A DNA stretch of 64,000 nt from an uncultured Gemmatimonadota bacterium (GTDB lineage Bacteria > Gemmatimonadota > Gemmatimonadetes > Palauibacterales > KS3-K002): contig CAYGCC010000074.1 in assembly GCA_964348165.1 (NCBI GenBank), forward strand, positions 5,128 through 69,127. The letters run 5' to 3'. Under the pieces are notes generated by a model. That model did no database searches. It had not been told where the DNA came from and saw only the letters and a program-made list of their open reading frames with translations. This document shows, in pieces, positions 8,373-63,324 of the stretch; position 1 is the first letter of the stretch, and every line of letters starts with the position of its first letter. Made by a program: the position numbers and the translations under genes.

Positions 8373-8389
8373 TCGCGGTTGGCCTGGCC

Positions 8390-8989: not shown

Positions 8990-9203
8990 CCCCGCCACCC
9001 GGCCACCCTCGACAGCGAGGGGGCCGCCGGATAAGTTATTCAGTTACAAGATTTTTTGAACCATCGGCTGCCCATCGAACGCCGGTGCGACAGAGCCAGA
9101 AAGGGGCTTCCGGGAGGGCCACACCGCCGCCCGTCGGCCCTTTTTGATTTTCTCGCGAATCGACAACCCGCGAGAATCAGAGCCTCGAGGAGGTGAATAA
9201 TAG

Positions 9204-35520: not shown

Positions 35521-36192
35521 CTACCTCTGAAGTATTTTGGGATGGCGTATCGTCTTCCCTTCCACCTGGTAGACGACGTCTTCCCCGATGTTGCAAGCTA
35601 GATCCGCCACCCGCTCGATGTTGCGGCCGATGAGAATGAAGGAGAGTGCCTGGCCAATCTCTGAGGGCGACTCCATCATCATCGTAATCGCCGATCGCAG
35701 GTGGGACTCGTGTAGCTGGTCGACGCGATCGTCCCGTTGGGGCACGCTGCGCGCTTTCGCCGCATCGTGCTGCACGAAGGCGTCGAGCACGTCGCGCAAC
35801 ATGCCGCGCGCGATCGAAGCGGCCTCGGACAACTCGATCGGCAAAGACCAGTCGCTGTGCTGTTCGATCAGGCGCTGCGCGGTCTCGGCGATATTGACGG
35901 CGTGATCGCCGATTCGCTCCAGGTCGTTGTTGATCTTGAGGATCGCCACCAGGCGGCGCAGATCACCCGCCATCGGCTGCTGGAGTGCCAAGAGCTCGAC
36001 GCATTCCTCCTCGATCTCGACTTCCGTCGCGTCGATCTCACGATCGCCCAGGATGACCGCCTCGGCCTTGCCGTTGTCACGCTCGTGGACGGCCTCCAGC
36101 GCCGTATCGATCAGCCCCTCGATCAGGCGCGACATGGCGACGAGTCGGCCCGTCAGGTCATCCAACTTCTTCTCGAAGTGCGTGCGCGCCAT
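35521..36192 (-). CDS. phoU: Phosphate signalling complex protein PhoU
   Basis: Two PhoU repeats, with …NNDLERIGDHAVNIAE… and …GRNIERVADLACNIGE…. Confidence 0.85.
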   Translation of the reverse strand: MARTHFEKKLDDLTGRLVAMSRLIEGLIDTALEAVHERDNGKAEAVILGDREIDATEVEIEEECVELLALQQPMAGDLRRLVAILKINNDLERIGDHAVNIAETAQRLIEQHSDWSLPIELSEAASIARGMLRDVLDAFVQHDAAKARSVPQRDDRVDQLHESHLRSAITMMMESPSEIGQALSFILIGRNIERVADLACNIGEDVVYQVEGKTIRHPKILQR

Positions 36193-36203
36193 CTCCTGAT
36201 CCC

Positions 36204-37103
36204 CTAGCCGAACCGGCCCGTGATGTACGCCTCGGTTCGCTCATCATCCGGGCTGGTGAACAGCCGGTCGGTCTCCCCGTACTCGATCAGGCGACCCAGG
36301 TTCATGAACGCGGTATAGTCGGCCACCCGCGCCGCCTGCTGCATATTGTGAGTGACGATCACGATCGTGTAGTGCTGCGCCAGTTCCCGCATCAGCTCTT
36401 CGATCCGGCCCGTGGCGATGGGGTCCAAAGCGCTCGCCGGTTCGTCCATCAGGATCACGTCCGGCTCTACCGCTAACGCCCGGGCGATGCAGACGCGCTG
36501 CTGCTGGCCGCCCGAGAGGCCGAGCGCGCTATCCCGTATCCGGTCCTTGATCTCATCCCAGAGCGCCGCCTTGCGCAACGCCAGCTCAACGCGCTCCGCT
36601 ATATCGCCGGTGTAGCGATTCACCCTGAGACCGAAGGCTACATTCTCGAAGATCGACTTCGGGAAAGGATTCGGCTTTTGGAAAACCATGCCGATGCGGC
36701 GACGCACCTCGACCGGGTCGACATCGGGACTGTAGAGGTCTTCGCCGTTGAACAGCACGGTGCCCTCGCACCAGGATATCGGGATCACGTCGTTCATTCG
36801 GTTGAAGGCACGCAGCAATGTGCTCTTGCCGCTGCCCGAAGGACCGATCAGAGCCGTGATGCGATTCCGCGGAATCGTCAGCGAGATATTGTGAATCGTC
36901 TTGGCCGAGCCGTAGTAGATGCTCAGGTCTTCAGTGGCCAGCACCGGGTCGGCGTGCACCATGATGTGGCGTGGATCGCCGTCCAGCTTGTCCAGATACC
37001 CGAGCTTGTTATTCGACTCCGCCGTCGTCATCCCCGCTCGCTCCGCTTCCTGCGCAGGTTGGGGCATTCGCATCTTGACCTCGGCCACGCGGTCGGGACT
37101 CAT
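36204..37103 (-). CDS. pstB: Phosphate ABC transporter ATP-binding protein PstB (alternative start at 37031)
   Basis: Walker [10 protein letters not shown], signature LSGGQQQRV, Walker B ILMDEP. The start forms an ATGA overlap with the pstA stop. Confidence 0.88.
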
Positions 37104-37993
37104 AGTTTCTTCTGCAATCGGTTTCGGAGCACAATGGCCAACGCGTTCATCGTTAGCAAGGCGATCAGCAAAACGATGATCGCGGCGGCGGCCAGCTCGT
37201 GGAAGCCTGCTTGGGGCCGGGAGGCCCAGTTGAAGATCTGAATCGGCAAGACCGTAAAAGGATCCAGCGGTGTCTCCGGCGTGAACGCCACGAAGGTCAG
37301 CGCGCCGATCATGATCAGCGGCGCCGTTTCGCCGATGGCTCGCGAGAGCGCCAGGATCATCCCGGTGAGAATTCCGGGCAGCGCGATGGGCAGGACCAAA
37401 TAGCGGAGTGTCTGCCACTGGGTCGCCCCAATCCCCAGGCCCGCGTCGCGGACCGAAGAGGGAACGGCCCGGATCGCTTCCTGGGCCGCGATGATCACGA
37501 TCGGCAGGATAAGCAGCGCCAGCGTCGCCGCCCCGGCCAGAACGCTGCGACCCAGGGCGATCCCACGCACGAAGACCGCCAGCCCCAGCACGCCATAGAC
37601 GATCGACGGCACGCCAGCCAGGTTGGCGATGTTGGTCTCGATCACCCGCGTCACCCAGTTGCGCGGGGCGTACTCCTCCAGGTAGATCGCCGCACCCACC
37701 CCCAGCGGGAACGACAGCAACCCCGTGAAACTGACCGTCCATATCGTTCCGTACAGTGCCGACTTGATCCCGGCCCGTTCGGGAAAACGCGACGGGTAGC
37801 TGTTCAAGAATTCCATGGATAGACGCCCGGCGCCCTGTCGCAGGATCTCGATCAACAGCGCCGCCAGCAGCACCACGGCAATCGCCGTGGCGGCAAAGCA
37901 AAACCAGAGAAAGATCGTCCCCCGGAGCCGACGGCGATCCAGACCCACGTCGAACTCGACGGCGCCCGCCGCAACCGCGCCCATCGACTTCAC
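37100..37993 (-). CDS. pstA: Phosphate ABC transporter permease PstA
   Basis: 6-TM permease with an EAA-like loop ([23 protein letters not shown]). Confidence 0.85.
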
Positions 37994-38985
37994 TCGTACA
38001 CCTCGCGGAACCGCCGCAAGATGACACGGCTCAAGATGTTCATCGCCAGCGTGATGCAGAAGAGGAGAAGGCCCACGGCGAAGATCGTCTTGTACTCGAT
38101 CGACCCGACGGGCGTATCGCCCAGGCTCACCTGGACGATGTACGCCGTCATCGTCTGGATGCTCTCCAGCGGATTCGCGGTTAGCTTCGGCGTTGCGCCC
38201 GCCGCCAGCGTCACCGCCATCGTCTCGCCGATCGCCCGCGAGATGGCGAGGATGAACGAGGCGATGATCCCCGAAAGCGCCGCCGGCACCACCACCCGGG
38301 TCACCGTCTCGAACTTCGTGGCGCCCAGCCCGTACGAGGCTTCACGCAGCGAGCGCGGCACCGCGTAGATGGCGTCCTCCGACAGCGACGCCACCATCGG
38401 CACGATCATGATCCCCACCACGATCGCCGCGCTCGCGGCGTTGAAGACACCCGTCTCCGGGAAGATCGTGCGGATGAGCGGTGTGATGAACGTGAGGGCG
38501 AAGTACCCGTAGACGACCGTCGGGATGCCCGCCAGAACCTCCAGCACCGGCTTCAAAGTCTTGCGGACCCGGCTCGGCGCGTACTCGGCCAGGTAGATCG
38601 CGCTCGCCAGTCCTACGGGCAACGCGATCAGCGAGGCGCCAAACGCTACCATCACCGACCCCGCCACCAGCGGCAAGACGCCGAAATTCCGCGGCACGAA
38701 CAGGGGGGTCCACTTCGTACCGGTCAGGAAAGCCCAGGGCGACACCTCACGGAAGAACCCGATCGACTCCCAGACCAGGACGACCACGATCCCGGCCGTG
38801 GTCGCCACCGAGACCAGGCCGCAGGCCAGCAGCACGCCACGGATCAGCCGCTCGCGCCAGCGTCGCCCGCGGGAGAGCACAAGCGTTGGGCCGCCTACAC
38901 CTCGTGGTCCGGCGATCTCAGCGGCTGTCGTTACCGCGTCGAGCAAGCTCGTGTTCTCCGACCAGTTGAATCCGTCCCGACGCAA
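37990..38985 (-). CDS. pstC: Phosphate ABC transporter permease PstC
   Basis: 6-TM permease with EAA-like [24 protein letters not shown] 4-nt overlap with pstA. Confidence 0.85.
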
Positions 38986-39065: not shown

Positions 39066-39255
39066 CCGCCCCTGATCGTTGAAACTAGCTCCTGAATACC
39101 AAGGCCGAGTAAACGTTCTGTAACAATCAGGTATCAGCTACGGCGCGAAGCGGGCTGAGTCCCGCTGGCGCGCAGGTCGTAGCGCCCGTACCATGCCGAA
39201 GCGCCGGCCGCGCACCTTCGCGGGCCGGGTCGATCCTCCAGTTGCGAGGGGTGTC

Positions 39256-40155
39256 ATGCGATCAAAAGTTGGCCTCTGGCTCGTTCTGCTTCTCGTACTC
39301 TGCAACCCTCGACTTTACGGGCAACAGAAGATGAAGATCTACATCTCAGCGGACATGGAGGGAGTGGTCGGCGTCGTGACGGGAGAACAGCTTGGCCCGT
39401 CGGGGTTCGAATACGAGCGATTCCGCCAGCTCATGACCGCCGAGGTCAATGCGGCGATCGAAGGCGCGCGCGCCGCCGGCGCGACCGAGATCCTGATCAG
39501 CGACTCGCACGGCAACGGCCAGAACCTCTTGCTGGAAAAACTGCCCACGGACGTCACGCTGGTACGCGCCTGGCCGCGACCTTTGATGATGATGGAGGGA
39601 ATCGACGAAACCTTCGACGCCGCGATCTTCATTGGGTATCACTCGAGCACGACCAACCCCGAGGGCGTGCGCGCCCATACGATGTCGAGCGCGCGCCTCG
39701 CCGACGTGCGCCTCAACGGTACCTCGGTGCCCGAGGCCGGCATCAACGCCGCCATCGCCGGTCACTTCGGCGTTCCCGTGGTCATGATCTCTGGCGATGA
39801 CGCCATCGTGGAAGAGGCGCGCGCGCTGCTTGGCGATATCGAGGGCGCCGTGGTGAAGTGGGCCTACGGCTTTCACTCGGCGCGTACCCTGATGCCGGAC
39901 GCCGCGTACGACCTCATCCGCGAGAAGGTACGGCGCGGAATCGAGCGCGCTTCCAGCCTCAAGCCGTACCGCCTCGATACGCCCATCCGGCTGGATATCC
40001 GTTTCAAGAATTACCGTCCCGCCGAAGTCCTCAGCTACCTTTCGATCGTCGAGCGAACGGACTCGCACAGCATCCGCTTCGTCGGCGAAGACATGATCGA
40101 GGTCTCGAAGTTTCTCGAGTTCATGCTAACCTACGATGGCTCGCTGTCGCCCTGA
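39256..40155 (+). CDS. Peptidase M55 (D-aminopeptidase DppA family), probably with signal peptide
   Basis: MKIYISADMEGVVGV is the characteristic M55 N-terminus. The upstream in-frame MRSKVGLWLVLLLVLC looks like a signal peptide. Confidence 0.75.
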   Translation: MRSKVGLWLVLLLVLCNPRLYGQQKMKIYISADMEGVVGVVTGEQLGPSGFEYERFRQLMTAEVNAAIEGARAAGATEILISDSHGNGQNLLLEKLPTDVTLVRAWPRPLMMMEGIDETFDAAIFIGYHSSTTNPEGVRAHTMSSARLADVRLNGTSVPEAGINAAIAGHFGVPVVMISGDDAIVEEARALLGDIEGAVVKWAYGFHSARTLMPDAAYDLIREKVRRGIERASSLKPYRLDTPIRLDIRFKNYRPAEVLSYLSIVERTDSHSIRFVGEDMIEVSKFLEFMLTYDGSLSP

Positions 40156-40239: not shown

Positions 40240-40647
40240 GTGAAGCTCAAGCGGCTGCTTCATGAGGTCCACCGCCGCTCGGTCTGGCAGGTCCTGGCCA
40301 TCTACCTGGTCTGCGCCTGGGTCGCTTTCGAGGTCAGCCGCGCCATCTCGGACCGGCACGACTTGCCTTCCTGGTTGACCCTCTTGTTTATCGGGCTGCT
40401 GGCGATCGGGTTGCTCTTCGTGATGACGACGGTCTACCTGCAGAAGGGCTTTCCCCGCAAGATGGGCCAGAGCGCCGGCGCCGCTTCCATGTCGCCGGGC
40501 AACGAGGTTTCAGCCGCTGGCGGCGCCGATTCGTGGATCGTCCGCCGTGTCTTCACCTGGCGAAACGCGATCCTTGCCGGAGTTGCCGCGCTCACGCTTT
40601 GGGCCCTTATCGCCGCCGCCTGGCTCTACCTCGCCACACACGGGTGA
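40240..40647 (+). CDS. Small hypothetical membrane protein
   Basis: Three predicted TM helices. High-GC3 frame. Confidence 0.4.
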   Translation: MKLKRLLHEVHRRSVWQVLAIYLVCAWVAFEVSRAISDRHDLPSWLTLLFIGLLAIGLLFVMTTVYLQKGFPRKMGQSAGAASMSPGNEVSAAGGADSWIVRRVFTWRNAILAGVAALTLWALIAAAWLYLATHG

Positions 40648-40800: not shown

Positions 40801-43149
40801 ATGCTTGCTTCCCCGCCCATGACTTTACAGATCCCGGCCCTCCTTCTGGCGCTCCAGGCGCCTCAGGCCGCGCCCAGTCCCGTCACAATCGAGGAGTACG
40901 TCCAGCTCGCCCAGCTCGGCCAGGTCCAGGTCGCCCCCGACGGTCGCTCCGTCACCTTTATTGCCAACGTGCCCGACGCGGGTGCCGACCTCTATCGCGG
41001 AACCCTCCATATCTGGGAACCTGACCAGGGGGCGCGGCCGGCGGCCGAGGGCTTCGCTGACGTGCGCGACCCGCGCTGGTCGCCCGATGGCGCCTGGCTG
41101 GCCTTCGTGTCCGCCGGACCGAACGCTGTGTCCGGCGACGGCGTCGTTCCGCGGCTCTGGCTGCTTTCGCGCACGAGTAACGAGCCGCGCGCCACTGCCG
41201 AGCTACCCGCCGCGGTCATCGACTACGGCTGGGCTCCCGGCGGCCTGATCTACACGCTGATCGGGAACGCCTCCGGCGGCGCCCGCGAGGTGTGGCGCAT
41301 CGAGGCGGCCCAGGGCGAAAGCGAGCGGGTTTGGGGCGGCGACGCCGGCATTCGTGAGCTGGCTGTCAGCCCGGACGGCGAAGCGATCGTATTCAGCAGC
41401 AACGCCACCGGACTCGACACGGACTATCTCAACTACGACCTGCGTATCCTCGACGTCGGCAGCGGCCGCACTCGAACCCTCACCAGCCGCGCTGGCTCGG
41501 AGCTCGCGCCGCTTTGGTCGCCGGATGGCGGCATGATCCTGTTCCTCGCCCCGCAAGATCCGACACTCGCACACTCACAGACCGAGTTGTTCAGCGTTCC
41601 CGCTACGGGCGGAACGCCGCAGGCGCTCACCGAGTCTTTCGACCTGACCGTCATCGACTTCCGCTGGCCGGCGGGCGGTGACGTCCTCTTCAGCGCCGCG
41701 GTTGGGGCCCACACGCATCTGTTCGCGATGCGGGCGAGCGGTGCCGTCGAGCAATTGAGTGGAGGCGCGTACAACATCGGCGCGTTCGACGCCACGAGCG
41801 GCGGGTCAGCGATCTACGCGATCCGCGAATCGGCGGAAGAAGCCGATGAGCTTTGGCGAATCGAAGTGACGGAGGTGAAGCGGCTCACCACGGTCAACGA
41901 GCGAGCGCGCCGCTGGCGATTGGCTCGGCAGGAGCTGCTGCGCTGGACGGCGCCCGACGGCCTGAGCAACGAGGGGCTGCTCGTCTATCCCGCCGGCTAC
42001 GTCGAGGGTCGCCGCTACCCGCTCTTGCTGAACCCGAGCGGTGGACCGTGGGGTCGCGCACGGGATGTGCTGAACCAGGCGGGCTCCTATCAGCTCTTCG
42101 CCGCCCAGGGCTACGCCGTGCTCGCGGCTAACGTGCGCGGTGGCAGCGGATACGGCGAGAGCTATGCGACGGCCAGTCGCACGGCCCTGGCGGGCGGCGA
42201 CCTGGTCGATCTACTGGCGGGGTTGGATCGAGTCATCGAGATGGGCGTCGCCGACTCGACCCGCATCGCCATCTATGGCGGCGCGGACAGCGAGTACGCC
42301 GCCCACTTGACCAGCTGGGCCGTGACCCAAACCTCGCGCTTTCAAGCCGCCGTGGTGCTATCGGGCATGGGCATCGAGCCGGCGTCCACCGCCGAGGGTA
42401 CGATCGAACGGCATGCCCGAATCGGGGCTCAGTACGTCGAGGCGTTGAAAGAGGAGCGCCCCCTGGTCGACGCGAGTCGCGCGGTTCTCACACCGCTCCT
42501 GATCATCGAAGGCGCGTCGCCGACGCTCGTCTCGCACCCGCGTCTCCTTTACAGCGCCCTCAGAGACCAGAGGCTCCCGGTCGCCCTGGTCGAGCTGCCG
42601 GGGCAGGCCGGCGCTGGATCCGGACCTCAGACACGCCGCGACCTCTTCTTCCGACAGCTTCGCTGGTTCGACCAGTACCTGAAGTTCGGCGGCGCCAACC
42701 TCGTCGATTTCTATATGCTGGATGAACCCGTGCCGGGGCCAGGCGGCTGGCAGCTGCGTGTGACCCGCGCGCAGCCGCGGGGCCCGTACATGGCCGTCGA
42801 GCCGGCCGAGGGACGCTACCTCGAGGTGGTCATCGAGTTCGAGCCCAGCGAAGCGGCGGTGCATGAGGGCAGGTTGGAATCGCTCGTACTGAACCTGGCG
42901 GAGGATCTGAGCCTGCTCGCCCCCGATAACACCTCTCGCTCGTTCGCCGGCACCGTCACCGAGATCTTCGGTCGCGAGACGCTGATCCTGGGCAGCCCCA
43001 GTCCGATCACCGTATCGCCACCGGAAGCGGGGGCGGCCCCGAAGCTCACGTTTCACCTGGCGTTCGAGATTCCAGCGGGGTCGGGTGAGTACCGCCTGCT
43101 GCACGAGGGTTTCGGGCCGGTAAGGATTTGGATTCCGAGAGAGCCGTAG
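40801..43149 (+). CDS. S9 (prolyl oligopeptidase)-family protein with N-terminal beta-propeller. The catalytic triad is apparently degenerate, and there is an extra C-terminal domain.
   Basis: PD40-like repeats (SPDGAWLAFVS, SPDGEAIVFSS, SPDGGMILFLA). The nucleophile-elbow position reads RIAIYGGADSEY instead of GGSYGG. Confidence 0.65.
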   Translation: MLASPPMTLQIPALLLALQAPQAAPSPVTIEEYVQLAQLGQVQVAPDGRSVTFIANVPDAGADLYRGTLHIWEPDQGARPAAEGFADVRDPRWSPDGAWLAFVSAGPNAVSGDGVVPRLWLLSRTSNEPRATAELPAAVIDYGWAPGGLIYTLIGNASGGAREVWRIEAAQGESERVWGGDAGIRELAVSPDGEAIVFSSNATGLDTDYLNYDLRILDVGSGRTRTLTSRAGSELAPLWSPDGGMILFLAPQDPTLAHSQTELFSVPATGGTPQALTESFDLTVIDFRWPAGGDVLFSAAVGAHTHLFAMRASGAVEQLSGGAYNIGAFDATSGGSAIYAIRESAEEADELWRIEVTEVKRLTTVNERARRWRLARQELLRWTAPDGLSNEGLLVYPAGYVEGRRYPLLLNPSGGPWGRARDVLNQAGSYQLFAAQGYAVLAANVRGGSGYGESYATASRTALAGGDLVDLLAGLDRVIEMGVADSTRIAIYGGADSEYAAHLTSWAVTQTSRFQAAVVLSGMGIEPASTAEGTIERHARIGAQYVEALKEERPLVDASRAVLTPLLIIEGASPTLVSHPRLLYSALRDQRLPVALVELPGQAGAGSGPQTRRDLFFRQLRWFDQYLKFGGANLVDFYMLDEPVPGPGGWQLRVTRAQPRGPYMAVEPAEGRYLEVVIEFEPSEAAVHEGRLESLVLNLAEDLSLLAPDNTSRSFAGTVTEIFGRETLILGSPSPITVSPPEAGAAPKLTFHLAFEIPAGSGEYRLLHEGFGPVRIWIPREP

Positions 43150-43162
43150 GTTCGCTTGAGTC

Positions 43163-44785
43163 TTGGTAATTTCAAACTCGCGTGTACAAAGACACGAGCC
43201 CTTCGAAAGCACCGGGCCACCGCGTAACGGAGGTAAGAGCTTGAACTCACGCCGCGTCACACTGCTCATCTTCGGTGTCGTGCTGGTCGCGGCCGTCGCT
43301 CTAGCCGGACGCTTCCCCCAGCAAGGCGGCCACTACGGCTTTTGGTCGGTGCTGCCCCCAGCCGTCGCCATCATCCTCGCCTTTGCGACACGCGAGGTCG
43401 TGAGCTCGCTGTTCATCGGTGTCGCGCTCGGTGGCGTGATCAGCGGCAAGATCAACATCGTACAGCACTTCCTCATCCCATCGATCGGCAGTCCCGAGTA
43501 CGGGCTGATCTTGCTCGTCTACCTGTGGGCTCTGGGCGGTCTCATCGGTCTGTGGACGCGGACCGGAGGCGCTCGCGCCTTTGCTGAGTGGGCGGGGCGT
43601 TTGATGGTGGTCGGTCCGCGCTCGGCGAAGTTCTTCGCCTGGCTGATGGGGATCATCTTTCACCAGGGCGGGACCATCAGCACCGTGCTCACGGGAACGA
43701 CGGTGCGCCCGGTGTCCGACCGGCATCGGGTCTCTCACGAGGAGCTGTCGTACATCGTCGACTCGACGGCGTCGCCCGCCGCCACCCTCATCCCTTTCAA
43801 CGTCTGGCCGATCTACGTCGCCGGACTCGTCGCCGGCACCGTACCGGTTCTGGCGACGCAGGCCGACGGCATCCAGTTCTTCTTCCGTGCGCTACCGTTC
43901 AACTTTTACGCGATGTTTGCGATCCTCTTTACCCTCCTGTTCTCGATCGAGCGTATGCCTTTCATCCCCGGAAAGCTCTGGGGCGATGTCCCGCTCGTCG
44001 TCGGCCGCAAGATGTCCGACGCCATGCGCCGAGCACGGGAGAACGGCGCCCTCGACCGACCCGGCGCCGAGCCGCTCACTTCCGAAGAGCTGACGGTGGT
44101 CAAGGTCGTGGAGGGCTACCCGACCGGGAAGCTCGACTTCTTCGGGCCGATCGGAGTATTGCTAGGCGTTGCAGTGATTCCGTACAGCTACGCTTTCTTC
44201 ATACAAGGTTCTGAAAGCCCGCCCCTCTACATCGCCGAAGCGTTCATCCTCGCCGTACTGGCCGGCGTGGCTATCGCGCTGGTCAAGGGGATGGATCTGC
44301 GAACGGCGATCAGCGCCATCATCGATGGGTGCAAGGGGGTGACGATCGGCGCCATCATCCTGGCGCTGGCCGTCACGCTCAAAGAGGTGGCCAGTGCCGT
44401 GGGCACCGCGGCCTACATCATCGAGGTCACCGCCGGTATACTCAGCCCGGTAATCGTACCCGCGCTCTTTCTCGCCCTCTGCATGGTCATCGCCTTCTCC
44501 ACTGGCACATCGTGGGGCACCTATGCGGTGGTCTTCCCCGTCGCTATGCCGCTCGCCTGGGCGATCAACCCCGACCCCACCTACCTCAAGCTCTGTTTCG
44601 GCGCGGTGCTCGGCGGCAGCGTCTTCGGCGACCAGTGCTCGCCGATCTCGGACACGACGATCCTTTCGTCGCTCGCCACCGGCTCGGACCTGATGGACCA
44701 TGTTTATACGCAGATCCCTCTCGCGCTCACCGCCGCTGGGCTGGGCGGGGTGCTCTATACGATCCTCGCCGCGTTCATTGTCTAG
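43163..44785 (+). CDS. Na+/H+ antiporter NhaC family (start uncertain)
   Basis: SVLPPAVAIILAFATREVVSSLFIGV and 10-12 TM helices, typical of NhaC. Confidence 0.7.
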   Translation: MVISNSRVQRHEPFESTGPPRNGGKSLNSRRVTLLIFGVVLVAAVALAGRFPQQGGHYGFWSVLPPAVAIILAFATREVVSSLFIGVALGGVISGKINIVQHFLIPSIGSPEYGLILLVYLWALGGLIGLWTRTGGARAFAEWAGRLMVVGPRSAKFFAWLMGIIFHQGGTISTVLTGTTVRPVSDRHRVSHEELSYIVDSTASPAATLIPFNVWPIYVAGLVAGTVPVLATQADGIQFFFRALPFNFYAMFAILFTLLFSIERMPFIPGKLWGDVPLVVGRKMSDAMRRARENGALDRPGAEPLTSEELTVVKVVEGYPTGKLDFFGPIGVLLGVAVIPYSYAFFIQGSESPPLYIAEAFILAVLAGVAIALVKGMDLRTAISAIIDGCKGVTIGAIILALAVTLKEVASAVGTAAYIIEVTAGILSPVIVPALFLALCMVIAFSTGTSWGTYAVVFPVAMPLAWAINPDPTYLKLCFGAVLGGSVFGDQCSPISDTTILSSLATGSDLMDHVYTQIPLALTAAGLGGVLYTILAAFIV

Positions 44786-44821: not shown

Positions 44822-45925
44822 GTGTTGTACTCGAGCTTCTCGCGCCTCTTCGACAACCGACGGCTTCGCCGCGCCCTTCCTGGGTATGTGGCCACAGCTC
44901 TGATCATCGTCGTCACGCTCCTCTGGACGTTCTGGAGCGTCGGCGAGCTGTATTACGAGGGGTGGTGGGGAGCGTGGTACATTCGGCTGGCCTACCTGAT
45001 CCCGGCCGGGGTCTGCCTGCTCCTCACCCTGATCGCGTTGACCTGGCCTCGCGTCGGTGGCTGGCTGATCATCATCATCGGCGGCGCCTTCACCGCCTGG
45101 TGGTTGGGTCCACGCCTTCGTTCGGGCCTCGATATCGGCCAACTGCTGGTACTCTTTCCCCTGAGTGGGATGCTCGTGGTGATCGGCGTGCTCTTCCTCT
45201 TCGAGGGGCGGCACCGGCGGTTGTCACGCAGGGAAGGCTGGACCCGGACCGGCGGCTGGCTGCGCCGCAACGCTCGCTTCGTAGCAGCCGTCGGGTTGCC
45301 GCTCCTCATTTTCCTCGGTTGGTCCGTGTACTGGCTACCCGTCCTGTTGTCACGACACGACGACGGCGAGCGTGGTACTCGGCTGATCGCCGGAAATCGC
45401 GTGACTCTGGTCTGGGCTCCCGAGGGCCCGGGCTGGAACTGGAAACAGCCGTGGGGCGGCTATCCATCCTGGGATCGGATCGCGCTTTACGGCGTGCCGC
45501 CGATCGGGCTTGAGGACAAGCCCGGCTATGAGGAAGGCCATGCCGACGCCGCCGAGATGGCGGCGACCGGGCTATGCCGTTATCTGAGCGCCGACGGTCT
45601 GACGCTGCTGAGCGAGGCTCAGAACATCTGGCGCCTGCCCACGACCGACGAGCTCATCGGTTCGCTGATGCGGCACAACGAGAACGCGAACTGCGTACGC
45701 GCCACATCGATCCTTGCAGCGCCCCGCGGCCGCGCCTCGTGCGACCGCACACCGGACAAGGAGACGCCCCTCTGGGCCCCGGACCGGGAACCGATCTACT
45801 ACTGGTCAGCCGACGAGTTCGATGCCGACCGCGCCTACTTCGTGAGTTACAGCGGCGCCTTCAACGTTCAGCCGAAGTCATGGGGCAACCCGCGACACAG
45901 CCATCGCTGCGTCCGCGCGCCTTGA
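44822..45925 (+). CDS. Membrane protein with C-terminal DUF1566 (Lcl C-terminal)-like domain
   Basis: At least 5 TM helices N-terminally, then …AQNIWRLPTTDELIGSLM… resembling the DUF1566 WRLPT..EL motif. Confidence 0.5.
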   Translation: MLYSSFSRLFDNRRLRRALPGYVATALIIVVTLLWTFWSVGELYYEGWWGAWYIRLAYLIPAGVCLLLTLIALTWPRVGGWLIIIIGGAFTAWWLGPRLRSGLDIGQLLVLFPLSGMLVVIGVLFLFEGRHRRLSRREGWTRTGGWLRRNARFVAAVGLPLLIFLGWSVYWLPVLLSRHDDGERGTRLIAGNRVTLVWAPEGPGWNWKQPWGGYPSWDRIALYGVPPIGLEDKPGYEEGHADAAEMAATGLCRYLSADGLTLLSEAQNIWRLPTTDELIGSLMRHNENANCVRATSILAAPRGRASCDRTPDKETPLWAPDREPIYYWSADEFDADRAYFVSYSGAFNVQPKSWGNPRHSHRCVRAP

Positions 45926-45995
45926 ACTAGCGAGCTTGCCGTGGTCCAGCCCTGTCCAATTGCCGGGCATCGACGGGCCGTCTTATTCTTTCTTC

Positions 45996-47066
45996 ATGGC
46001 CCACGTCAGCCTGCGTGATCTCACCAAAGAGTTCGAAGAGACCGTCGCCGTCGCCGAGCTGAGTCTCGAGATCGCGGACGGCGAGTTCATGGTGCTGGTG
46101 GGGCCGTCGGGCTCGGGGAAGACGACGGCCTTGCGATTGATCGCCGGGCTCGAGCACCCCACGCGCGGATCGATCTACATCGACGACCGCAACGTCACCG
46201 ATGTCCCCGCGCGTGACCGCGATATCTCGATGGTCTTCCAGAGCTACGCCCTCTACCCACACATGACCGTGTACCAGAACATGGCCTTCGGCCTCGAGGT
46301 GCGTGGAGTCGGCAAGGAGCAGATCCGCGAGCGGGTCGAGGCGGCAGCGGATATCCTCGGCATACGCGAACTGCTGCACCGCAGACCCGGTCAGCTTTCC
46401 GGAGGTCAGCGGCAACGCACCGCCTTAGGCCGCTCTATCGTGCGCCAGCCCAGCGCGTTTCTATTCGATGAACCGCTCTCTAACCTCGACGCCAGCCTGC
46501 GCGTCGGCATGCGTGCGGAGCTTTCCCAGCTTCACCGCCGCCTGAACGCCACGATCATCTACGTGACGCACGATCAGGTCGAGGCGATGACCATGGGACA
46601 GCGCATCGCGGTCATGAACGAGGGCCGCCTCCAGCAGTGCGCCACGCCGCTGGAGGTTTATCGCCGACCCGCCAACCTTTTCATCGCGGGCTTCATCGGA
46701 TCGCCCGCGATGAACTTTTTTCCGGGCACCCTGGGAAGCGTCCAGGGCGGCTGGGAGTTTCGGGGGGCCAGCTTCAGACTAGAACTGCCGCCGAGCGGCG
46801 AATTCTCCAGCGGTCCAGCGACTTTGGGTGTTCGGCCGGAAGACTTGCAGCTCGGCAGCGACGGTGTCCTGCGTGCGACCGTACGCGTGGTCGAGCCCAT
46901 CGGCAGTGAAGTCTTCGTGCACTTGACCACGGCCGACGGGGAGCTGGCCGTCGCCCGAGCGCCGGCTGATGTGCAGGTGGCGGTGGAGGAGCGCGTCGGC
47001 CTCGAGATCCCACCGAAGAAGGTGCATCTATTCAGTGGCGCCTCCGGCGTGCGGATCGGGCCCTGA
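45996..47066 (+). CDS. Carbohydrate ABC transporter ATP-binding protein (MalK/UgpC/MsmX-like)
   Basis: Walker A GPSGSGKTT, LSGGQRQRTALGR, Walker B FLFDEPLSNLD, plus a C-terminal TOBE-like domain. Confidence 0.85.
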   Translation: MAHVSLRDLTKEFEETVAVAELSLEIADGEFMVLVGPSGSGKTTALRLIAGLEHPTRGSIYIDDRNVTDVPARDRDISMVFQSYALYPHMTVYQNMAFGLEVRGVGKEQIRERVEAAADILGIRELLHRRPGQLSGGQRQRTALGRSIVRQPSAFLFDEPLSNLDASLRVGMRAELSQLHRRLNATIIYVTHDQVEAMTMGQRIAVMNEGRLQQCATPLEVYRRPANLFIAGFIGSPAMNFFPGTLGSVQGGWEFRGASFRLELPPSGEFSSGPATLGVRPEDLQLGSDGVLRATVRVVEPIGSEVFVHLTTADGELAVARAPADVQVAVEERVGLEIPPKKVHLFSGASGVRIGP

Positions 47067-48361
47067 TGCGAACACGCCCCTTACACCGTTTGATCGCCGC
47101 ACTCGTGCTGCTCGCAGCCACGGCCTGCCGAGGCGGCGAGCGCACGGTCATTCGGGTCATGGCATGGGCAGGGCCCGAGGAACGCCAGATCGAGCAGCGC
47201 ATTCTCGACCAGTTTCAACAGCGCCACCCAGAGATCCACATCGAGTACGAGTCGATCTCCGCCAACTACCGTGAGCGGCTGCTGACCTCCATCGTGGCCG
47301 GTACGCCCCCCGACGTGGCGTTGCTTGACAACGGCTCCTTCGGCGCCGCGCCCTTCATCGCTCGAGATCTGCTAGTCAACGTCGCGCCCTATCTCGAGCG
47401 CATCGGCGTCGACACCTCAGCTTACTATCCTCAAGTACTCGAGATCTTCAAACGGGGCGGCGGCCTATACGCGTTCCCGAAGGACTTCAACCCCATCGTC
47501 GTCTATTGCAACGTCGAGCTGTTCGAGGCCGCCGACGTGGCGCTCCCCGAGCCCGACTGGACCTGGGACGATTTCTTGACCATCGCCCAGAGCCTGACCC
47601 TCGACAGCGACGGCGACGGCCGGCCCGAAACCTTCGGAACGTTGCTACGCCGGGTCTTTTACCTCTGGCAACCTTGGGTCTGGGCGGCCGGCGGCGACGT
47701 GTTGAGCCCTGACGGTCGCCGCGCCAGCGGCTATCTGGACAGCCCCGAAACCGAGCGCGCCATCAAGTTTCTCACTGACCTGGTCAAGGTGCACCGTGTG
47801 GTCCCAGCCGTAGACGTGCAGCGGCAGGAGCAGGGGATGGAGCGCAACCTCTTCCTGACAGGTCGCATCGGGATGGTGACCAGCGGTCACTGGTGGCTCC
47901 CCAGCATTCGCCGCTACATCGCCGAGGGAAAGGTCAGGGTGGCGGTGCGTCCCCTTCCGCGCTACGCCGATCGCGAGCCGGTCACCGTGCTTTACGCCGC
48001 CGGTTGGGCGGTGCCCCACAACACCCGGCACAAACGGCTCGCGGTCGAGCTCGCGGCGCACCTGTCGTCGCCCGAAGCGCAAAGTCAGCGCGCGAGCTAC
48101 GGGCTCGCCATTCCGTCGCTTCGCGCCATCCACGAAGAAGCGGCGGCCGCCGACGAGCTGGGCCTGGAGGAGGATTTCCTGGCCGCCGCGCGCTACGGGC
48201 GCATGTCGTGGGGATCGAGCGTGGAAAAGTGGGCGCACGTCGAGGTCTTCCTCCCCGACATCTTCGATCGTGTCATCTTCGCCAAGGAACCGATCCACGA
48301 GGTCACGACCGACGTGGCGCGACGGATCGATGAAATACTCGCCGCGCCCGCCAACGATTGA
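47066..48361 (+). CDS. Carbohydrate ABC transporter substrate-binding lipoprotein (SBP family 1)
   Basis: Lipobox LLAATACRGG. Size and position between the ATPase and permeases. Confidence 0.75.
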   Translation: MRTRPLHRLIAALVLLAATACRGGERTVIRVMAWAGPEERQIEQRILDQFQQRHPEIHIEYESISANYRERLLTSIVAGTPPDVALLDNGSFGAAPFIARDLLVNVAPYLERIGVDTSAYYPQVLEIFKRGGGLYAFPKDFNPIVVYCNVELFEAADVALPEPDWTWDDFLTIAQSLTLDSDGDGRPETFGTLLRRVFYLWQPWVWAAGGDVLSPDGRRASGYLDSPETERAIKFLTDLVKVHRVVPAVDVQRQEQGMERNLFLTGRIGMVTSGHWWLPSIRRYIAEGKVRVAVRPLPRYADREPVTVLYAAGWAVPHNTRHKRLAVELAAHLSSPEAQSQRASYGLAIPSLRAIHEEAAAADELGLEEDFLAAARYGRMSWGSSVEKWAHVEVFLPDIFDRVIFAKEPIHEVTTDVARRIDEILAAPAND

Positions 48362-48413
48362 ACCTACGTTTCAAGACTGTGAACCGCGCGCCGACGATGA
48401 GTGACGGAAACGA

Positions 48414-50615
48414 ATGAGCCGCTTGCGACCAGCCTACTACTTGCTGGTCCTGATGCCAGCTCTGGTTCTCGCTGTCGTCGGGATCGCCGTCGCCCATCGC
48501 AGCCGCGCTGACCTGCAGCCGGAGTTGGACCGGCACGCCGCTGCCCGCGCTGCCGAGTACATCCGCTGGGAGCGCGCGCGTCTCCGTCGACGCCTCGCGG
48601 AATCGGCGGCCTCACTCGCCGACGCGGCCTCCGACCTGTCGATCGAGCGGTACACCTTTTATGAGCGCAACACCGCGCTCGACCGCGAGGTGTTCGTCGG
48701 CTCCTTCCCGGTCGACTCGCCGATCGTACCGCTCACCCCGGAGACTGAGCGCAGCGAAGCGTTACTGGCGACCGCGCGACAAGGCGCCACTGTGGCGGAG
48801 CTGGTCAGCCTGGAAGGGCGGGTGCGCTGGCTCGCTTACCTTTTCGACGGCGAGCGCACGACGGTCGTGTTGCTCGCCTTGGAGCCCGCTCTCACGGAAC
48901 GCTTTCGAGCCGCCAGCGGTTACGAGCTGGCGCTTTACTATGAAGATACGCGTGTCCCGCCCGCCTGGATCGACTGGCCGGAAAATCTCCCGCCTTCCCT
49001 GCGTGACTCGCTGGCAAGCTTCGATCGGCCGATCAGCGCGCGGCTGCAAGGAGAGCGCGCGGCCGCCGCACCCATCAAAGACTTCGACGACTGGGATGTC
49101 ATCGGCACGGCGCTGGTACGTCCAGGCGCGAACGCCCCGGCCACGCCTGGGTTTCCCCTGCTTCCGGCGCTGGCCCTGGTTTTGGCGGCCCTGGCGACGG
49201 CCGGCATCCTCTGGCGCGCCGGGTCCGAGGCGACCCGACCCGCAGGCGCACGCTCGCTTCGCCGGGGGCTGACCCGCGCTCTGGTTCCGGCGGCGCTGGC
49301 GGCGGCCTGGCTCGTCGCCGTGGACAACGGGGCTTCAAGCCGGGCAACCGACGCGGCGCTCGAGATGAGCGCCCGCCTGGTGCGGGGGGCTCTGGGCCCA
49401 ACGGCGGGGCTGTTACCCTCAGCCGCCACTCTCTCGGCCAACGCGCTCTCGCGCCTGAGCGGGTTCGATGTGGTCGTGATGCGCGGCGACTCCATCGCCG
49501 CCGCCACTCGGGAGACGCCGACTGCAGCGCTTATCGGACTGGGATCGCCGGCGGGCCGCTTGCGCTTGGGCGACGATCGCCGCGCCTACCGCCGGCTGGA
49601 CCTTTCCGATGAGTGGCGCCTCTTCTTGCTGGCACCACCGCTCGAGGACTCTCGTAAAGCCGTCCTCTTCTGGCTCGCGGGCCTCTATGGCCTACTCGCC
49701 GTCGGCGCCCTGATCTTCGCAAGCCACGCCAGCGCCGCCGGCAGCGCTCTGGAGCTGCGGGAAGCGGTGACCGGATGGACCTTCATCGGGCCCTCACTCG
49801 CGTTACTACTGGTCTTCTCGGCGGCGCCGCTGCTCTTCGCGTTTTACTTGAGCGTTCATGGTTGGAATCTGGTGGAGCCGGTCAAGCCCTTCGTCGGGCT
49901 CCGCCATTACGTCCAGCTGGCCGGAGATGGAACCTTCTGGAACGCGGCAAAGAACACCCTGCTTTACTCGCTCTACGTGCCGGCGACGATGATGCTGTCG
50001 CTGGCCGTCGCCCTTTTGCTCAACCGCTCGTTCCGGGGCGTGGCGCTGCTGCGTGCCGTGTTCTTCATGCCGTACATCACGAGCTTCGTAGCGATCTCCA
50101 TCGTCTGGCAGTGGATGTACGACCCCGAGTTCGGATTTATCAACTGGGCGCTGGGGCTGGTGGGGCTGGGACCGTACCCCTGGCTCAGCAACCCGGCCAC
50201 TGCCTTGCCCGCGCTAATGATCATGGCCGTCTGGATCCACATCGGCTTCCAGATGGTCATCTTCCTGGCGGGCCTTCAGGCGATACCGAACGAGCTGTAC
50301 GAAGCGGCGATGATCGACGGCGCCGGCCGCTGGCGTCGTTTCTGGCGCATCACCCTACCGTTGCTCAAGCCGACGACGTTCTTCGTGCTGGTTACCTCGA
50401 TCATCGGCTCCTTTCAGGTCTTCACCTTCGTCTATGTCATGACTGAGGGCGGGCCGCTCCGAGCCACCGACGTCATCGTCTATCACATCTATCAGAACGC
50501 CTGGCAGTTCTTGCGTATGGGCTACGCCTCGGCGATGAGCTGGGTGCTGTTCGCGGCCATCTTCGCGATCACGCTGCTCCAGTTCAGGCTGCTGGGCCGC
50601 AGGGTGACCCCTTAG
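48414..50615 (+). CDS. Carbohydrate ABC permease (MalF/UgpA-type) fused to a roughly 445-aa N-terminal membrane/periplasmic extension
   Basis: C-terminal 290 aa carry LREAVTGWTFIGPSLALLLVF and EAA motif EAAMIDGAGRWRRFWRITLPLLKPT. One uninterrupted frame with 3 extra TM segments upstream. Confidence 0.6.
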   Translation: MSRLRPAYYLLVLMPALVLAVVGIAVAHRSRADLQPELDRHAAARAAEYIRWERARLRRRLAESAASLADAASDLSIERYTFYERNTALDREVFVGSFPVDSPIVPLTPETERSEALLATARQGATVAELVSLEGRVRWLAYLFDGERTTVVLLALEPALTERFRAASGYELALYYEDTRVPPAWIDWPENLPPSLRDSLASFDRPISARLQGERAAAAPIKDFDDWDVIGTALVRPGANAPATPGFPLLPALALVLAALATAGILWRAGSEATRPAGARSLRRGLTRALVPAALAAAWLVAVDNGASSRATDAALEMSARLVRGALGPTAGLLPSAATLSANALSRLSGFDVVVMRGDSIAAATRETPTAALIGLGSPAGRLRLGDDRRAYRRLDLSDEWRLFLLAPPLEDSRKAVLFWLAGLYGLLAVGALIFASHASAAGSALELREAVTGWTFIGPSLALLLVFSAAPLLFAFYLSVHGWNLVEPVKPFVGLRHYVQLAGDGTFWNAAKNTLLYSLYVPATMMLSLAVALLLNRSFRGVALLRAVFFMPYITSFVAISIVWQWMYDPEFGFINWALGLVGLGPYPWLSNPATALPALMIMAVWIHIGFQMVIFLAGLQAIPNELYEAAMIDGAGRWRRFWRITLPLLKPTTFFVLVTSIIGSFQVFTFVYVMTEGGPLRATDVIVYHIYQNAWQFLRMGYASAMSWVLFAAIFAITLLQFRLLGRRVTP

Positions 50616-51541
50616 TGATGATGGATACTTCACGCGGAGACGCCCCTCACATCCGCGGACCGAGCGGCCGAGCCCGCGGCGGCGCTCAGCCCGACTCCAC
50701 GCTTGTGAGCATCCAGGCGATGGAGGCTAAGATCGGGCGGGGGCTCGTCCACGGATTCGCCATCCTTCTGGGGCTGACGATGCTCGTGCCCTTCCTCTGG
50801 ATGGTCTCCACCTCGCTAATGACCGAGTTCGAGGTCTATGGGTATCCTCCGCGCCTGCTGCCGGCGGATCCGGTGTGGAGTAACTATCCGAACGCGCTGA
50901 CCGCGGCGCCGTTCGCGCGCTTCTTCCTAAACTCGGCGATCATGTCGACCTTCATCGTGGCCGGGCATCTCGTTACCGCTTCGACCGCCGGCTATGCCTT
51001 CGCGCGTCTTCGCTTCCCCGGCCGCGAGCGAGTGTTCATTCTCTTCCTGGCCAACCTGATGGTACCGGTGATCGTGCTGCTTATCCCGCGCTTCTTGCTG
51101 GTGCAGGCGGCGGGTTGGGTGGACACCTACGCCGGGCTCATCGTCACCGAACTCGTGGGCGTGTGGGGGATCTTTTTGATGCGCCAGTATTTTCTTTCCA
51201 TCCCCCGAGAGCTGGAGGACGCCGCTCGTGTTGATGGGGCGAGCGAGTGGCAGGTCTTTTATCGGGTGGCGCTACCGCTGGCGAAGCCGGCGCTGGCCAC
51301 CGTGGCGCTGTTCTCCTTCGTCGAGACCTGGAAGAGCTTTCTCTGGCCGCTCATCGTCACCCGCTCGATGGGTATGCGCCCGGTCGAGGTGGGGATCGCC
51401 GCCTTCCACGGCATTTACTTCACCAACTGGCCATTCCAGATGGCGGCGGCCGTCACGGCCGTGGTCCCGATCCTCGTCCTCTTCTTGTTCACACAGCGCT
51501 ACTTCGTACGCGGGATCCAGCTGGCTGGGCTCAAGTACTAA
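50615..51541 (+). CDS. Carbohydrate ABC permease (MalG/UgpE-type); true start may be the ATG near 50722
   Basis: EAA region LEDAARVDGASEWQVFYRVALPLAKPAL. 6 TM helices. Confidence 0.75.
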   Translation: MMMDTSRGDAPHIRGPSGRARGGAQPDSTLVSIQAMEAKIGRGLVHGFAILLGLTMLVPFLWMVSTSLMTEFEVYGYPPRLLPADPVWSNYPNALTAAPFARFFLNSAIMSTFIVAGHLVTASTAGYAFARLRFPGRERVFILFLANLMVPVIVLLIPRFLLVQAAGWVDTYAGLIVTELVGVWGIFLMRQYFLSIPRELEDAARVDGASEWQVFYRVALPLAKPALATVALFSFVETWKSFLWPLIVTRSMGMRPVEVGIAAFHGIYFTNWPFQMAAAVTAVVPILVLFLFTQRYFVRGIQLAGLKY

Positions 51542-61915: not shown

Positions 61916-62506
61916 ATGCTTTTTCTAAGTGTTCTGAGAAAGATTCGCACGTCCCTGTTGCGGCCGGGCATCCTCGGGGGCCCTGGCAAAGTTTCCCGAG
62001 CGAGAAGACACAGCAACAGATGGCTTCGGCAGCATTGCCGCACGATCGAAGGTGACGTGTTGTCGATCGGCAGCGGGACGGACGCGGATGGAGAGGGCAA
62101 CCACTACAGCGATTATTTTGTCAAAGCATCTTCTTATACGACATCCGACTTCTCTCACGATTTCGGCTGTGACCTCACACTCGATGTTCGCTCGATGCCG
62201 CAGATAAAGGACGAATCGTATGATTGCATATTCTGCAGCGGCGTCCTGGAACATGTAGACGACGTAACGGATGGGCTCAACGAGATCACTCGAATTCTCA
62301 AAGTTGGCGGGACGTTATTGCTGGGCCTACCGTTTCGGCAGGCGATTCATATGGCTCCGAACGACTACTGGAGATTCACTGAATACGGGATCAGGCATAT
62401 GCTGAGAATTTCATATGAGATTCAACATGTGGAGCCAATCGACACCCGGGCGAAAAACTTCCCAGCCACGTACTGGGTACGAGCCAGGAAGACGCGGAAG
62501 AGCTAA
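61916..62506 (+). CDS. Class I SAM-dependent methyltransferase with markedly lower GC than its neighbours
   Basis: VLSIGSGTDADG (motif I) and FCSGVLEHVDD. The sequence is visibly AT-richer than the flanking sequence. Confidence 0.7.
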   Translation: MLFLSVLRKIRTSLLRPGILGGPGKVSRARRHSNRWLRQHCRTIEGDVLSIGSGTDADGEGNHYSDYFVKASSYTTSDFSHDFGCDLTLDVRSMPQIKDESYDCIFCSGVLEHVDDVTDGLNEITRILKVGGTLLLGLPFRQAIHMAPNDYWRFTEYGIRHMLRISYEIQHVEPIDTRAKNFPATYWVRARKTRKS

Positions 62507-62604
62507 ACAATCCATCGAATAGACGTGACCGTCGTACCAGCCACGCGGGCGGTTAAGCCACTCTGAGACTCCGTGCAGGAGGGTCACACAGCCAGGTTGA
62601 GCGT

Positions 62605-63270
62605 CTAGCCGGAGCGCAAGGTGACTCGAGCCATTCGCACCTTCAGAGTGCCCCAGTCTTTCTCGAAGTGATCCTCTGGCTCCAAAATCTCCACGTCATA
62701 CTGCTGGCGGTTCAATGAGTTGATCAGATGCTGGCAGCCAACAGCTTGGACTTGCGGTTCCGTGTTGGTGTAGTAGTCGTCGAAGAGCACCACGGTGTCG
62801 GCGGTCATCACCTTTCTGATCTGCTCCCAATCGGCTGCGATCGTTTCGATCGAATGGCCCCCGTCGATGAAGACAAAATCAACGGTGGTGCCCGTGCCCG
62901 TGATCTCCTGCACGAACGCCGGCAGCGTCTCGGACGTGTAGCCGATGAACAGTCGAACCTGGGCACCTGTCTCCTCCAACCTTCGTGTCACCTCGGCGGC
63001 TGGCGGGGGCTTCTTCGAAAACTCCCAGTCCAAATCGTGATCCGTCAATCGCTCAAACAGGTCGAACCCGAAATACGCGACCTGCTCGATGGGATGGAAG
63101 ATGCCCGCGGTTTCGATCATCTGTCGCGCATGAACGCCATCGTAGGTGCCGATCTCGAGCAGTGTGCGGCAGCGTCGTCGGTACACGGTCTCGAGCAAGT
63201 GGCGGTATCGGCTCTTCGCCATCCGGATCAGGCGGCGCCGATACACAAGTCGTCTCAGGAATCTGGGCAT
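62605..63270 (-). CDS. Class I SAM-dependent methyltransferase (TylF/CmcI-like, Methyltransf_24-type)
   Basis: LLEIGTYDG and FVFIDGGHSIE motifs. Confidence 0.65.
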   Translation of the reverse strand: MPRFLRRLVYRRRLIRMAKSRYRHLLETVYRRRCRTLLEIGTYDGVHARQMIETAGIFHPIEQVAYFGFDLFERLTDHDLDWEFSKKPPPAAEVTRRLEETGAQVRLFIGYTSETLPAFVQEITGTGTTVDFVFIDGGHSIETIAADWEQIRKVMTADTVVLFDDYYTNTEPQVQAVGCQHLINSLNRQQYDVEILEPEDHFEKDWGTLKVRMARVTLRSG

Positions 63271-63324
63271 GCTCGGGTTGGACGTGACTAAGTCAAACCT
63301 AGAACCGGGAGTCGGCCGAGTCGT

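Follow-up and report, generated by a model that had tools for sequence, protein, structure and literature searches.

The locus raises the question of whether a protein that has the fold of an S9 family peptidase can still be a peptidase, and what it might do if it is not. The protein is encoded in a 64,000-nucleotide stretch of DNA from an uncultured Gemmatimonadota bacterium (contig CAYGCC010000074.1, referred to in its entirety as the window), where its gene follows those of an M55 D-aminopeptidase and a small membrane protein and precedes that of an NhaC-superfamily transporter. An earlier reading made from the nucleotide letters without database searches (the sequence-only reading) had proposed an S9 homolog without the Ser-Asp-His triad, and its placement of the 782-residue open reading frame (ORF) was exact (Table 1). 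The comparisons described below indicate that the catalytic residues are lost throughout a clade of related proteins, and that the gene has been maintained under selection beside the transporter gene.

Fold of the S9 homolog and fate of its catalytic residues

The features that define an S9 homolog, an N-terminal β-propeller followed by a Peptidase_S9-type α/β-hydrolase domain, were both found in the window protein. The Pfam Peptidase_S9 model covers residues 430-628 (E value 6e-18, 65.5 bits versus a cutoff of 22.6) and three PD40 repeats were detected at 55.1 bits versus a cutoff of 20.9, with additional matches to DPPIV_N (19.9 bits versus a cutoff of 22) and S15 that were below threshold. 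When the PDB was searched with phmmer, S9 carboxypeptidases and acylaminoacyl peptidases were matched with E values from 5.7e-39 to 2e-14; the Geobacillus S9 carboxypeptidase 8wt1 gave the lowest value, and the other relatives were the Fusobacterium carboxypeptidase 7ep9, the Deinococcus S9 peptidase (5yzm/5yzo), and the Pyrococcus acylaminoacyl peptidase. An AlphaFold2 model derived from a 77-sequence alignment (predicted local distance difference test score, pLDDT, 86.6; predicted template modeling score 0.86) has an all-β propeller region arranged in blades, and a Foldseek search with this model recovered the same S9 enzymes at target-normalized template modeling scores of approximately 0.8 (8wt1 at 0.81, E value 1e-41). 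Because of these Pfam, PDB, AlphaFold2, and Foldseek matches, the propeller and hydrolase body recognized in the sequence-only reading are genuine, and by sequence comparison the protein is an S9 homolog nearest to the acylaminoacyl-peptidase/carboxypeptidase type. More specific identities were considered and rejected, including Dpp5 (133 bits versus an NCBIfam cutoff of 900), the lasso-peptide isopeptidase Atxe2 (123.7 bits versus an NCBIfam cutoff of 400), and TolB (TIGR02800, 41.3 bits versus a cutoff of 343, with the PD40 blades alone providing the match).

Three independent alignments located the positions of the triad: a phmmer alignment to 8wt1, MAFFT alignments (one with 121 sequences and one with 77), and an hhalign run in which a triad-less profile was matched to an active profile that had been built separately (767 columns aligned at a probability of 100%); 34 active relatives served as the reference set for column conservation. 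All three alignments place Ala495 at the position of the nucleophilic Ser (GGSYGG in active relatives), followed by an inserted Asp-Ser-Glu at residues 496-498, and the second Gly of the GxSxGG elbow is replaced by Ala501. The catalytic Asp (HGxxD in active relatives) corresponds to Ala572, with two residues deleted and the His of this motif replaced by Glu570, and the catalytic His corresponds to Gly604, with the PRxxHG motif of active relatives gone. In the oxyanion-hole motif the His of HGGP is replaced by Ser413, giving SGGP. Each of these lost catalytic columns (the triad, the second elbow Gly, and the HGGP His) is 100% conserved in the 34 active relatives, and the HGGP His column is variable in the triad-less clade. 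The clade has, in addition, lost residues that never vary in the active enzymes: Trp546 and, within the propeller, Thr82, Gly127, Glu128, Ala129, and Thr133. The propeller motif GGEA..T, which the active enzymes keep invariant, is gone from residues 127-133. The strings quoted in the sequence-only reading (IYGGADSEY, IIEGASPTLVSHP, and LPGQAGAGSG) are all present and correspond to the former nucleophile elbow, Asp loop, and His loop, respectively. That reading had proposed alignment to characterized S9 enzymes to locate the triad positions, and would have been refuted by a triad located elsewhere; none was found, and a triad in another register was likewise ruled out by the three methods, including the separately built profiles. 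Thus, none of the four hallmarks of an active S9 enzyme (the GxSxGG Ser, the HGxxD Asp, the His of the HG loop, and HGGP) is present in the window protein.

Two possible substitutes for the nucleophile were examined and excluded. Ser497, which lies within the insertion, is unconserved in that close relatives carry G, N, T, P, or A at this position (Gly or Asn in relatives of 71-74% identity), and the Ser of a 'GSG' sequence is also unconserved within the clade. The hydrolase-domain alignment revealed no Ser, Cys, His, Asp, or Glu that is conserved specifically in the triad-less clade, and the sole clade-specific changes in this domain are Gly to Ala substitutions at positions 464 and 490. We conclude from the alignments that the catalytic machinery of the window protein is lost; with the triad and the HGGP His replaced and no clade-specific Ser, Cys, or His to take their place, the earlier proposal of a pseudo-peptidase is supported.

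The S9 carboxypeptidases and acylaminoacyl peptidases of known structure (8wt1; Deinococcus radiodurans 5yzm/5yzn; Fusobacterium 7ep9; Pyrococcus 4hxg) share the propeller and hydrolase body with the window protein, but are active enzymes of approximately 620-690 residues with GGSYGG, HGxxD, and HG motifs, whereas the window protein lacks the triad and the HGGP His and has an extra 150-residue C-terminal domain with an immunoglobulin (Ig)-like fold. This domain, which the sequence-only reading had noticed, is real: residues 631-782 modeled alone form a β-sandwich with a pLDDT of 92.7. Its fold matches those of DUF4352/MPT63-like Ig β-sandwich proteins (Bacillus subtilis YjhA, 3cfu, and YcdA, 4r4g; Mycobacterium tuberculosis MPT63, 1lmi), but the sequence identity to these proteins is 9-16%, and they are stand-alone proteins of unknown function whereas the window domain is fused to an S9 body. 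No Pfam family matched residues 631-782 at an E value of 0.01 or less, and the DUF4352/MPT63 sequence profile was unmatched. A single-sequence phmmer search of 1.84 billion representatives found the domain in this S9 family alone; it is lacking in canonical S9 enzymes and is present in the triad-less clade, its active sisters, and more distant proteins (P0057-65) described below.

At the opposite end of the protein, the first 25 residues resemble a signal peptide. The best 10-residue Kyte-Doolittle window is 2.2 (the family mean is 2.56) and the best 19-residue window is 1.22, below the strength of a transmembrane helix, with a hydrophobic core of approximately 10 residues. The hydrophobic pattern is kept across the family. 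Because the N terminus is signal-peptide-like and the C-terminal domain has a fold often seen in lipoproteins and secreted proteins, the protein is predicted to be exported.

A triad-less clade with active sisters

A homolog search yielded approximately 55 clusters of full-length relatives with 43-74% identity to the window protein, and those with organism names are all from uncultured Gemmatimonadota. Nearly all of these relatives are without Ser and His at the triad columns, such that approximately 50 clusters share the loss. Two subtypes are distinguishable: one, which includes the window protein, has the sequence 'GGxxxxYGA' with a three-residue insertion, and the other has 'G[SDEG]G-YGA' without the insertion, with some of its members retaining the Asp at the acid position. 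In contrast to the window protein, five clusters (P0043, P0046-48, and P0055) with 46-48% identity over the full length retain GGSYGG, HGxxD, and PREGHG; these active sisters keep the Ser, Asp, and His, the His of HGGP, PRxxHG, and the propeller GGEA..T motif, and they have the same three-domain architecture as the window protein, including the C-terminal domain. Triad motifs are also retained in the more distant proteins of 820-866 residues (P0057-65) and in the canonical enzymes of approximately 660 residues. In a neighbor-joining tree the 43 triad-less proteins that were aligned fall into a single clade whose sister group comprises the active P0043/46/47/48/55 proteins, and a single loss event would fit this tree. 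In one of the active sisters, P0055, the C-terminal ~130 residues are Arg/Pro-rich and do not align to the Ig domain, probably as the result of an assembly frameshift.

Selection on the gene was estimated from ratios of nonsynonymous to synonymous substitution rates (dN/dS), calculated by the Nei-Gojobori method among five close members. The dN/dS values were 0.19-0.27 for the whole S9 protein and below 0.35 in each domain (0.20-0.32 for the propeller, 0.16-0.23 for the hydrolase domain, and 0.08-0.20 for the C-terminal domain, the most constrained part of the protein), compared to 0.08-0.11 for M55 in the same genome pairs and 0.056 for NhaC in the pair formed by the window and locus L001. 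Conservation was approximately 0.65 in all three domains of the S9 protein, and 51 residues are invariant over 47 sequences, many of them within the C-terminal domain. Mean identities over 105 pairs of triad-less loci were 52% for S9, 82.5% for NhaC, and 76% for M55; for the sole pair of active loci, the S9 identity was 67% at an NhaC identity of 82.7%, which suggests, with that single pair as the basis, some relaxation of the S9 gene after the loss. Judged from these substitution rates, the S9 protein is clearly under purifying selection, although less tightly than its neighbors. A decaying pseudogene was ruled out by the dN/dS values and by the intact ORFs found clade-wide; the gene is not decaying because the loss is common to one clade of approximately 50 clusters, because of its dN/dS, and because of its fixed position beside NhaC.

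Linkage to an NhaC-type transporter and a proposed non-catalytic role

The plus strand of the window carries, in order, the genes for the M55 D-aminopeptidase, a small protein with three predicted transmembrane segments, the S9 homolog, the NhaC-superfamily transporter, a DUF7670 membrane protein, and a sugar-type ATP-binding cassette (ABC) transporter. The M55-(small membrane protein)-S9-NhaC order recurs around triad-less members with 73%, 53%, 52%, and 45% identity to the window protein and is also seen at the locus of the active sister P0047. When GTDB representative genomes were scanned, 17 family loci were obtained, of which 15 are labeled as metagenome-assembled genomes (MAGs) of Gemmatimonadota or Gemmatimonadales and two only as 'uncultured bacterium'. 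The NhaC gene lies directly after the S9 gene and on the same strand in 18 of the 18 scorable cassette loci (16 triad-less, 2 active), with short or overlapping spacing in all of them; the called genes overlap in L003. The other members are less constant. M55 is upstream in most loci and missing in L007 and L013, and the small membrane protein gene, the DUF7670 gene, and a convergent M61 glycyl aminopeptidase gene are variable. Homologs of the small membrane protein (38-50% identity) occupy the same position in most triad-less loci; the gene is absent from L001, L002, and L089, the closest relatives of the window, and from the two active-S9 loci L006 (that of P0047) and L020, which otherwise have the same M55-S9-NhaC cassette. 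No NhaC or M55 homolog was found within 5 kb in any of 63 S9 loci of other phyla, so a general pairing of S9 with NhaC across phyla was rejected, and the distant active relatives P0057 and P0064, which possess the C-terminal domain, are in unrelated contexts outside the cassette. The S9-NhaC linkage is specific and invariant. The gap between the two genes contains no terminator-like site, in scans for promoters and terminators that were otherwise at chance level, and co-transcription of S9 and NhaC appears likely. The program-called NhaC ORF begins at the TTG at 43163; because its homologs align from residue ~27 and GGAGG is found 7 nt upstream of the TTG at 43241, the true start is probably the latter, yielding a protein of 514 residues like its homologs and an S9-NhaC gap of approximately 91 nt rather than 13 nt.

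Since the active sisters share the cassette, the ancestral state would be an active, probably periplasmic S9 exopeptidase of the acylaminoacyl-peptidase/S9-carboxypeptidase type encoded alongside a D-aminopeptidase and a transporter of the NhaC type. These three proteins may have formed a module for trimming peptides outside the cytoplasm and taking up the resulting products. Such a module is suggested by the signal-peptide-like N termini of S9 and M55, by the exported-type fold of the C-terminal domain, by the report that most S9 homologs of Gemmatimonadota have signal peptides (bioRxiv 10.1101/2024.09.22.614393), and by the finding that the main histidine importer of Staphylococcus aureus is an NhaC-type protein (PMC10817146). 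One lineage then lost the Ser, the His, the HGGP His, and the surrounding motifs, with the Asp lost in most members, but the protein kept its slot in the cassette under purifying selection. From the lost catalysis together with the retained slot and the purifying selection we infer a non-hydrolytic role. The former substrate cavity of the S9 protein could retain peptides or, alternatively, its conserved C-terminal domain could serve for docking; either way, the protein would be a binding or accessory partner of the NhaC-type transporter, with which it is probably co-expressed. Since some loci do without it, M55 is a less probable partner. The binding or scaffold function put forward in the sequence-only reading is, likewise, a proposal. 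Overall, we favor with moderate confidence an exported pseudo-peptidase that was derived from an active enzyme of a peptide-scavenging and uptake module and kept for a non-catalytic role, likeliest peptide binding or assistance to the transporter; the role and the substrate of the module are our suggestions.

Inactive homologs are familiar in peptidase families. The animal S9B pseudo-peptidases DPP6 (also called DPPX) and DPP10 are not known to have lost more than the Ser, and each is a type II membrane protein anchored by a true transmembrane helix. They are inactive S9 proteins that function as subunits of Kv4 channels, and the DPP10 of the fly combines peptidase activity with the role of a channel subunit (PMC4873792, PMC9409431). 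The amino-acid transporter B0AT1, too, is found in complexes with peptidases (PMC3408045). The window protein is a pseudo-peptidase of the DPP6/DPP10 kind, outside that subfamily. Like them it has an S9 fold without the nucleophilic Ser and has been retained under selection, but it is nearest to the acylaminoacyl-peptidase/carboxypeptidase type rather than S9B (its DPPIV_N match being below threshold), it is without all three triad residues rather than the Ser alone, and it has a signal-peptide-like N terminus with the short core noted above rather than a type II anchor. The proposed partner is a secondary transporter and not a channel, and whereas DPP6 and DPP10 act by association with a membrane transport protein, the association of the window protein is one of gene linkage. 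An active orthologue already in a partner role, as in the fly (PMC4873792), parallels the active sisters within the same cassette. The analogy could be carried further: the dead S9 peptidase would be a dedicated periplasmic subunit of the NhaC-superfamily transporter, a bacterial counterpart of DPP6/DPP10 that captures peptides or amino acids in the former cavity or gates or stabilizes the transporter via its C-terminal Ig domain, with the active sisters at an intermediate stage of enzyme plus partner, as for fly DPP10. We view this extended proposal as speculative and rather unlikely.

Several observations weigh against the role that we favor, which stands on gene linkage and analogy. The single loss is read from a neighbor-joining tree without support values. 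The N-terminal hydrophobic segment lacks an n-region with positive charge, which leaves export uncertain. Evolution of the S9 gene is faster than that of the neighboring NhaC and M55 genes, and a tight, obligate subunit might be better conserved. Finally, a second triad-less paralog, P0026 (761 residues; L005, positions 7001-9286, in the complete MAG CP070815.1, the same genome as L004/L009), sits away from any transporter and outside the cassette, with a Transposase_29 gene adjacent and a LytTR two-component system upstream.

This paralog and the lower conservation of S9 relative to NhaC are also consistent with a non-catalytic protein unrelated to NhaC, such as a scaffold or regulator of M55 or a TolB-like envelope-binding protein, the adjacency to NhaC being inherited synteny. 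The entire region (the pst operon, M55, S9, NhaC, and the sugar ABC transporter) is syntenic across the group, such that the adjacency could be historical, and the propeller has PD40/TolB-like repeats. The TolB model, however, gives 41 bits versus its cutoff of 343, and the S9-NhaC pair is intact in L007 and L013 despite the missing M55. The short or overlapping, same-strand spacing in every scorable locus, maintained while the DUF7670, M61, and small membrane protein genes vary around it, also argues against mere synteny, and we consider a role apart from NhaC to be unlikely.

It is also conceivable that the protein is still an enzyme, with a non-canonical active site that uses another nucleophile and base, or with other chemistry in the same cavity. 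The purifying selection on the hydrolase domain would be explained in this way, as would the invariance of the GGP of the oxyanion motif and of the charged residues R419, R446, D470, and D485 near the pocket, and part of the clade has Asp at the acid position. On the other hand, every polar residue that is conserved in the hydrolase domain is common to the active sisters, with none specific to the clade, and the three former active-site loops vary in both length and sequence, with the elbow insertion in one subgroup and 'GSG'/'GDG'/'GEG' in another. The former His loop is the least conserved stretch within the clade (mean top-residue frequency of 0.40), and Ser497 is unconserved even among relatives of 71-74% identity. 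We regard a cryptic enzyme as quite improbable. A functionless relic, kept only since its DNA or its translation serves expression of the downstream transporter, is very improbable: the dN/dS is 2-4 times that of the neighbors and the former active-site loops are relaxed, but full-length ORFs are intact in approximately 50 clusters despite divergence down to 43% identity, the dN/dS over all domains is far from the value near 1 expected of a relic, the 51 invariant residues include many in the C-terminal domain, and the AlphaFold2 fold is confident.

The clade has value beyond this locus. Pseudo-enzymes are common, but few bacterial ones are traceable to a defined active orthologue in the same operon slot. 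The clade supplies natural matched pairs, with active and dead S9 proteins in the same M55-S9-NhaC cassette, and so a direct test of what becomes of a peptidase scaffold after catalysis is lost. It also offers a candidate physiological context, the scavenging of peptides or amino acids, for an uncharacterized branch of the NhaC superfamily in the largely uncultured Gemmatimonadota, which are reported to have unusually many S9 homologs (bioRxiv 10.1101/2024.09.22.614393). Automated annotation labels members of the clade 'S9 family peptidase' or 'prolyl oligopeptidase family serine peptidase', which overstates activity for approximately 50 clusters. In the searchable literature we found no description of the clade, the three-domain architecture, or the cassette.

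Other features of the window

The coordinates of the S9 homolog, its domains and former catalytic elements, and the neighboring genes are compiled in Table 1.

Table 1 Features of the S9 homolog and of its neighborhood, in window coordinates
Feature	Coordinates	Strand	Basis or remark
Triad-less S9 family homolog (pseudo-peptidase)	40801..43149	+	782 residues plus stop codon
Short hydrophobic N-terminal segment, residues 1-25, signal-peptide-like	40801..40875	+	Kyte-Doolittle hydropathy
β-Propeller with PD40 repeats, residues ~28-380	40882..41940	+	Pfam PD40 (three repeats), weak DPPIV_N
α/β-Hydrolase (Peptidase_S9) domain, residues ~381-630, predicted to be catalytically dead	41941..42690	+	PF00326
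Ser413, at the His position of the HGGP oxyanion-hole motif	42037..42039	+	Alignments
Former nucleophile elbow IYGGADSEY, residues 491-499	42271..42297	+	Alignments
Former Asp loop IIEGASPTLVSHP, residues 568-580	42502..42540	+	Alignments
Former His loop LPGQAGAGSG, residues 599-608	42595..42624	+	Alignments
C-terminal Ig-like β-sandwich, residues 631-782	42691..43146	+	DUF4352/MPT63-like fold
M55 D-aminopeptidase (DppA-like), signal-peptide-like N terminus, usual upstream cassette member	39193..40155	+	PF04951, E value 2e-97
Small membrane protein between M55 and S9, 135 residues, three predicted transmembrane segments	40240..40647	+	Three hydrophobic segments
NhaC-superfamily secondary transporter, downstream of S9	43163..44785	+	PF03553, E value 6e-33
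Membrane protein with DUF7670	44822-45925	+	DUF7670 above cutoff; Lcl_C/DUF1566 26.7 bits, below the 34.9 cutoff
Phosphate ABC transporter block (PhoU, PstB, two permeases)	35521-38985	-	Divergent from the M55-S9-NhaC cassette
Sugar-type ABC transporter (MalK-like ATPase, SBP_bac_1 binding protein, 733-residue permease, 308-residue permease)	45936-51541	+	

Of the two neighbors named in the sequence-only reading, the NhaC antiporter family was corroborated by the Pfam match. The protein encoded next was described there as a DUF1566 membrane protein; it is a membrane protein, but the DUF1566 match is weak and the domain that passes its cutoff is DUF7670. This protein is 64-72% identical in several related loci, where its position is variable. 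A finer name for the transporter could not be assigned, as it scored below all NCBIfam equivalog cutoffs and had no relative in the PDB. The NhaC homolog of L089 (8430-9890) is short, with 486 residues, and shares only 78% identity with the NhaC proteins of the window and L001, a pair with 95% identity between them. The M55 protein scored 208.7 bits against the NCBIfam DppA model, below its cutoff of 430, and the small membrane protein had no match in Pfam or NCBIfam.

The M61 glycyl aminopeptidase, which has a PDZ domain, is encoded downstream of NhaC, on the minus strand and convergent to it, in L003, L004, L006, and L020; it accompanies both active and triad-less loci and is not adjacent in the window. 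No close S9 paralog able to supply activity was found in the 64 kb of the window. A distant PD40 β-propeller coding region is located at approximately 9614-11272 on the plus strand, where tblastn aligned the S9 propeller at 23-27% identity. The phosphate ABC transporter block is syntenic in most related loci, and the 607-residue length of the ORF called within it (36204-38027) reflects mechanical over-extension, the PstB itself having approximately 300 residues. An Rfam scan over the whole window detected no RNA family. The 733-residue permease of the sugar-type transporter is unusually long, with BPD_transp_1 covering residues 528-731 only, and recurs in related loci at approximately 717-734 residues. 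The GC content is 0.587 at positions 62001-64000, compared to 0.62-0.71 elsewhere in the window.

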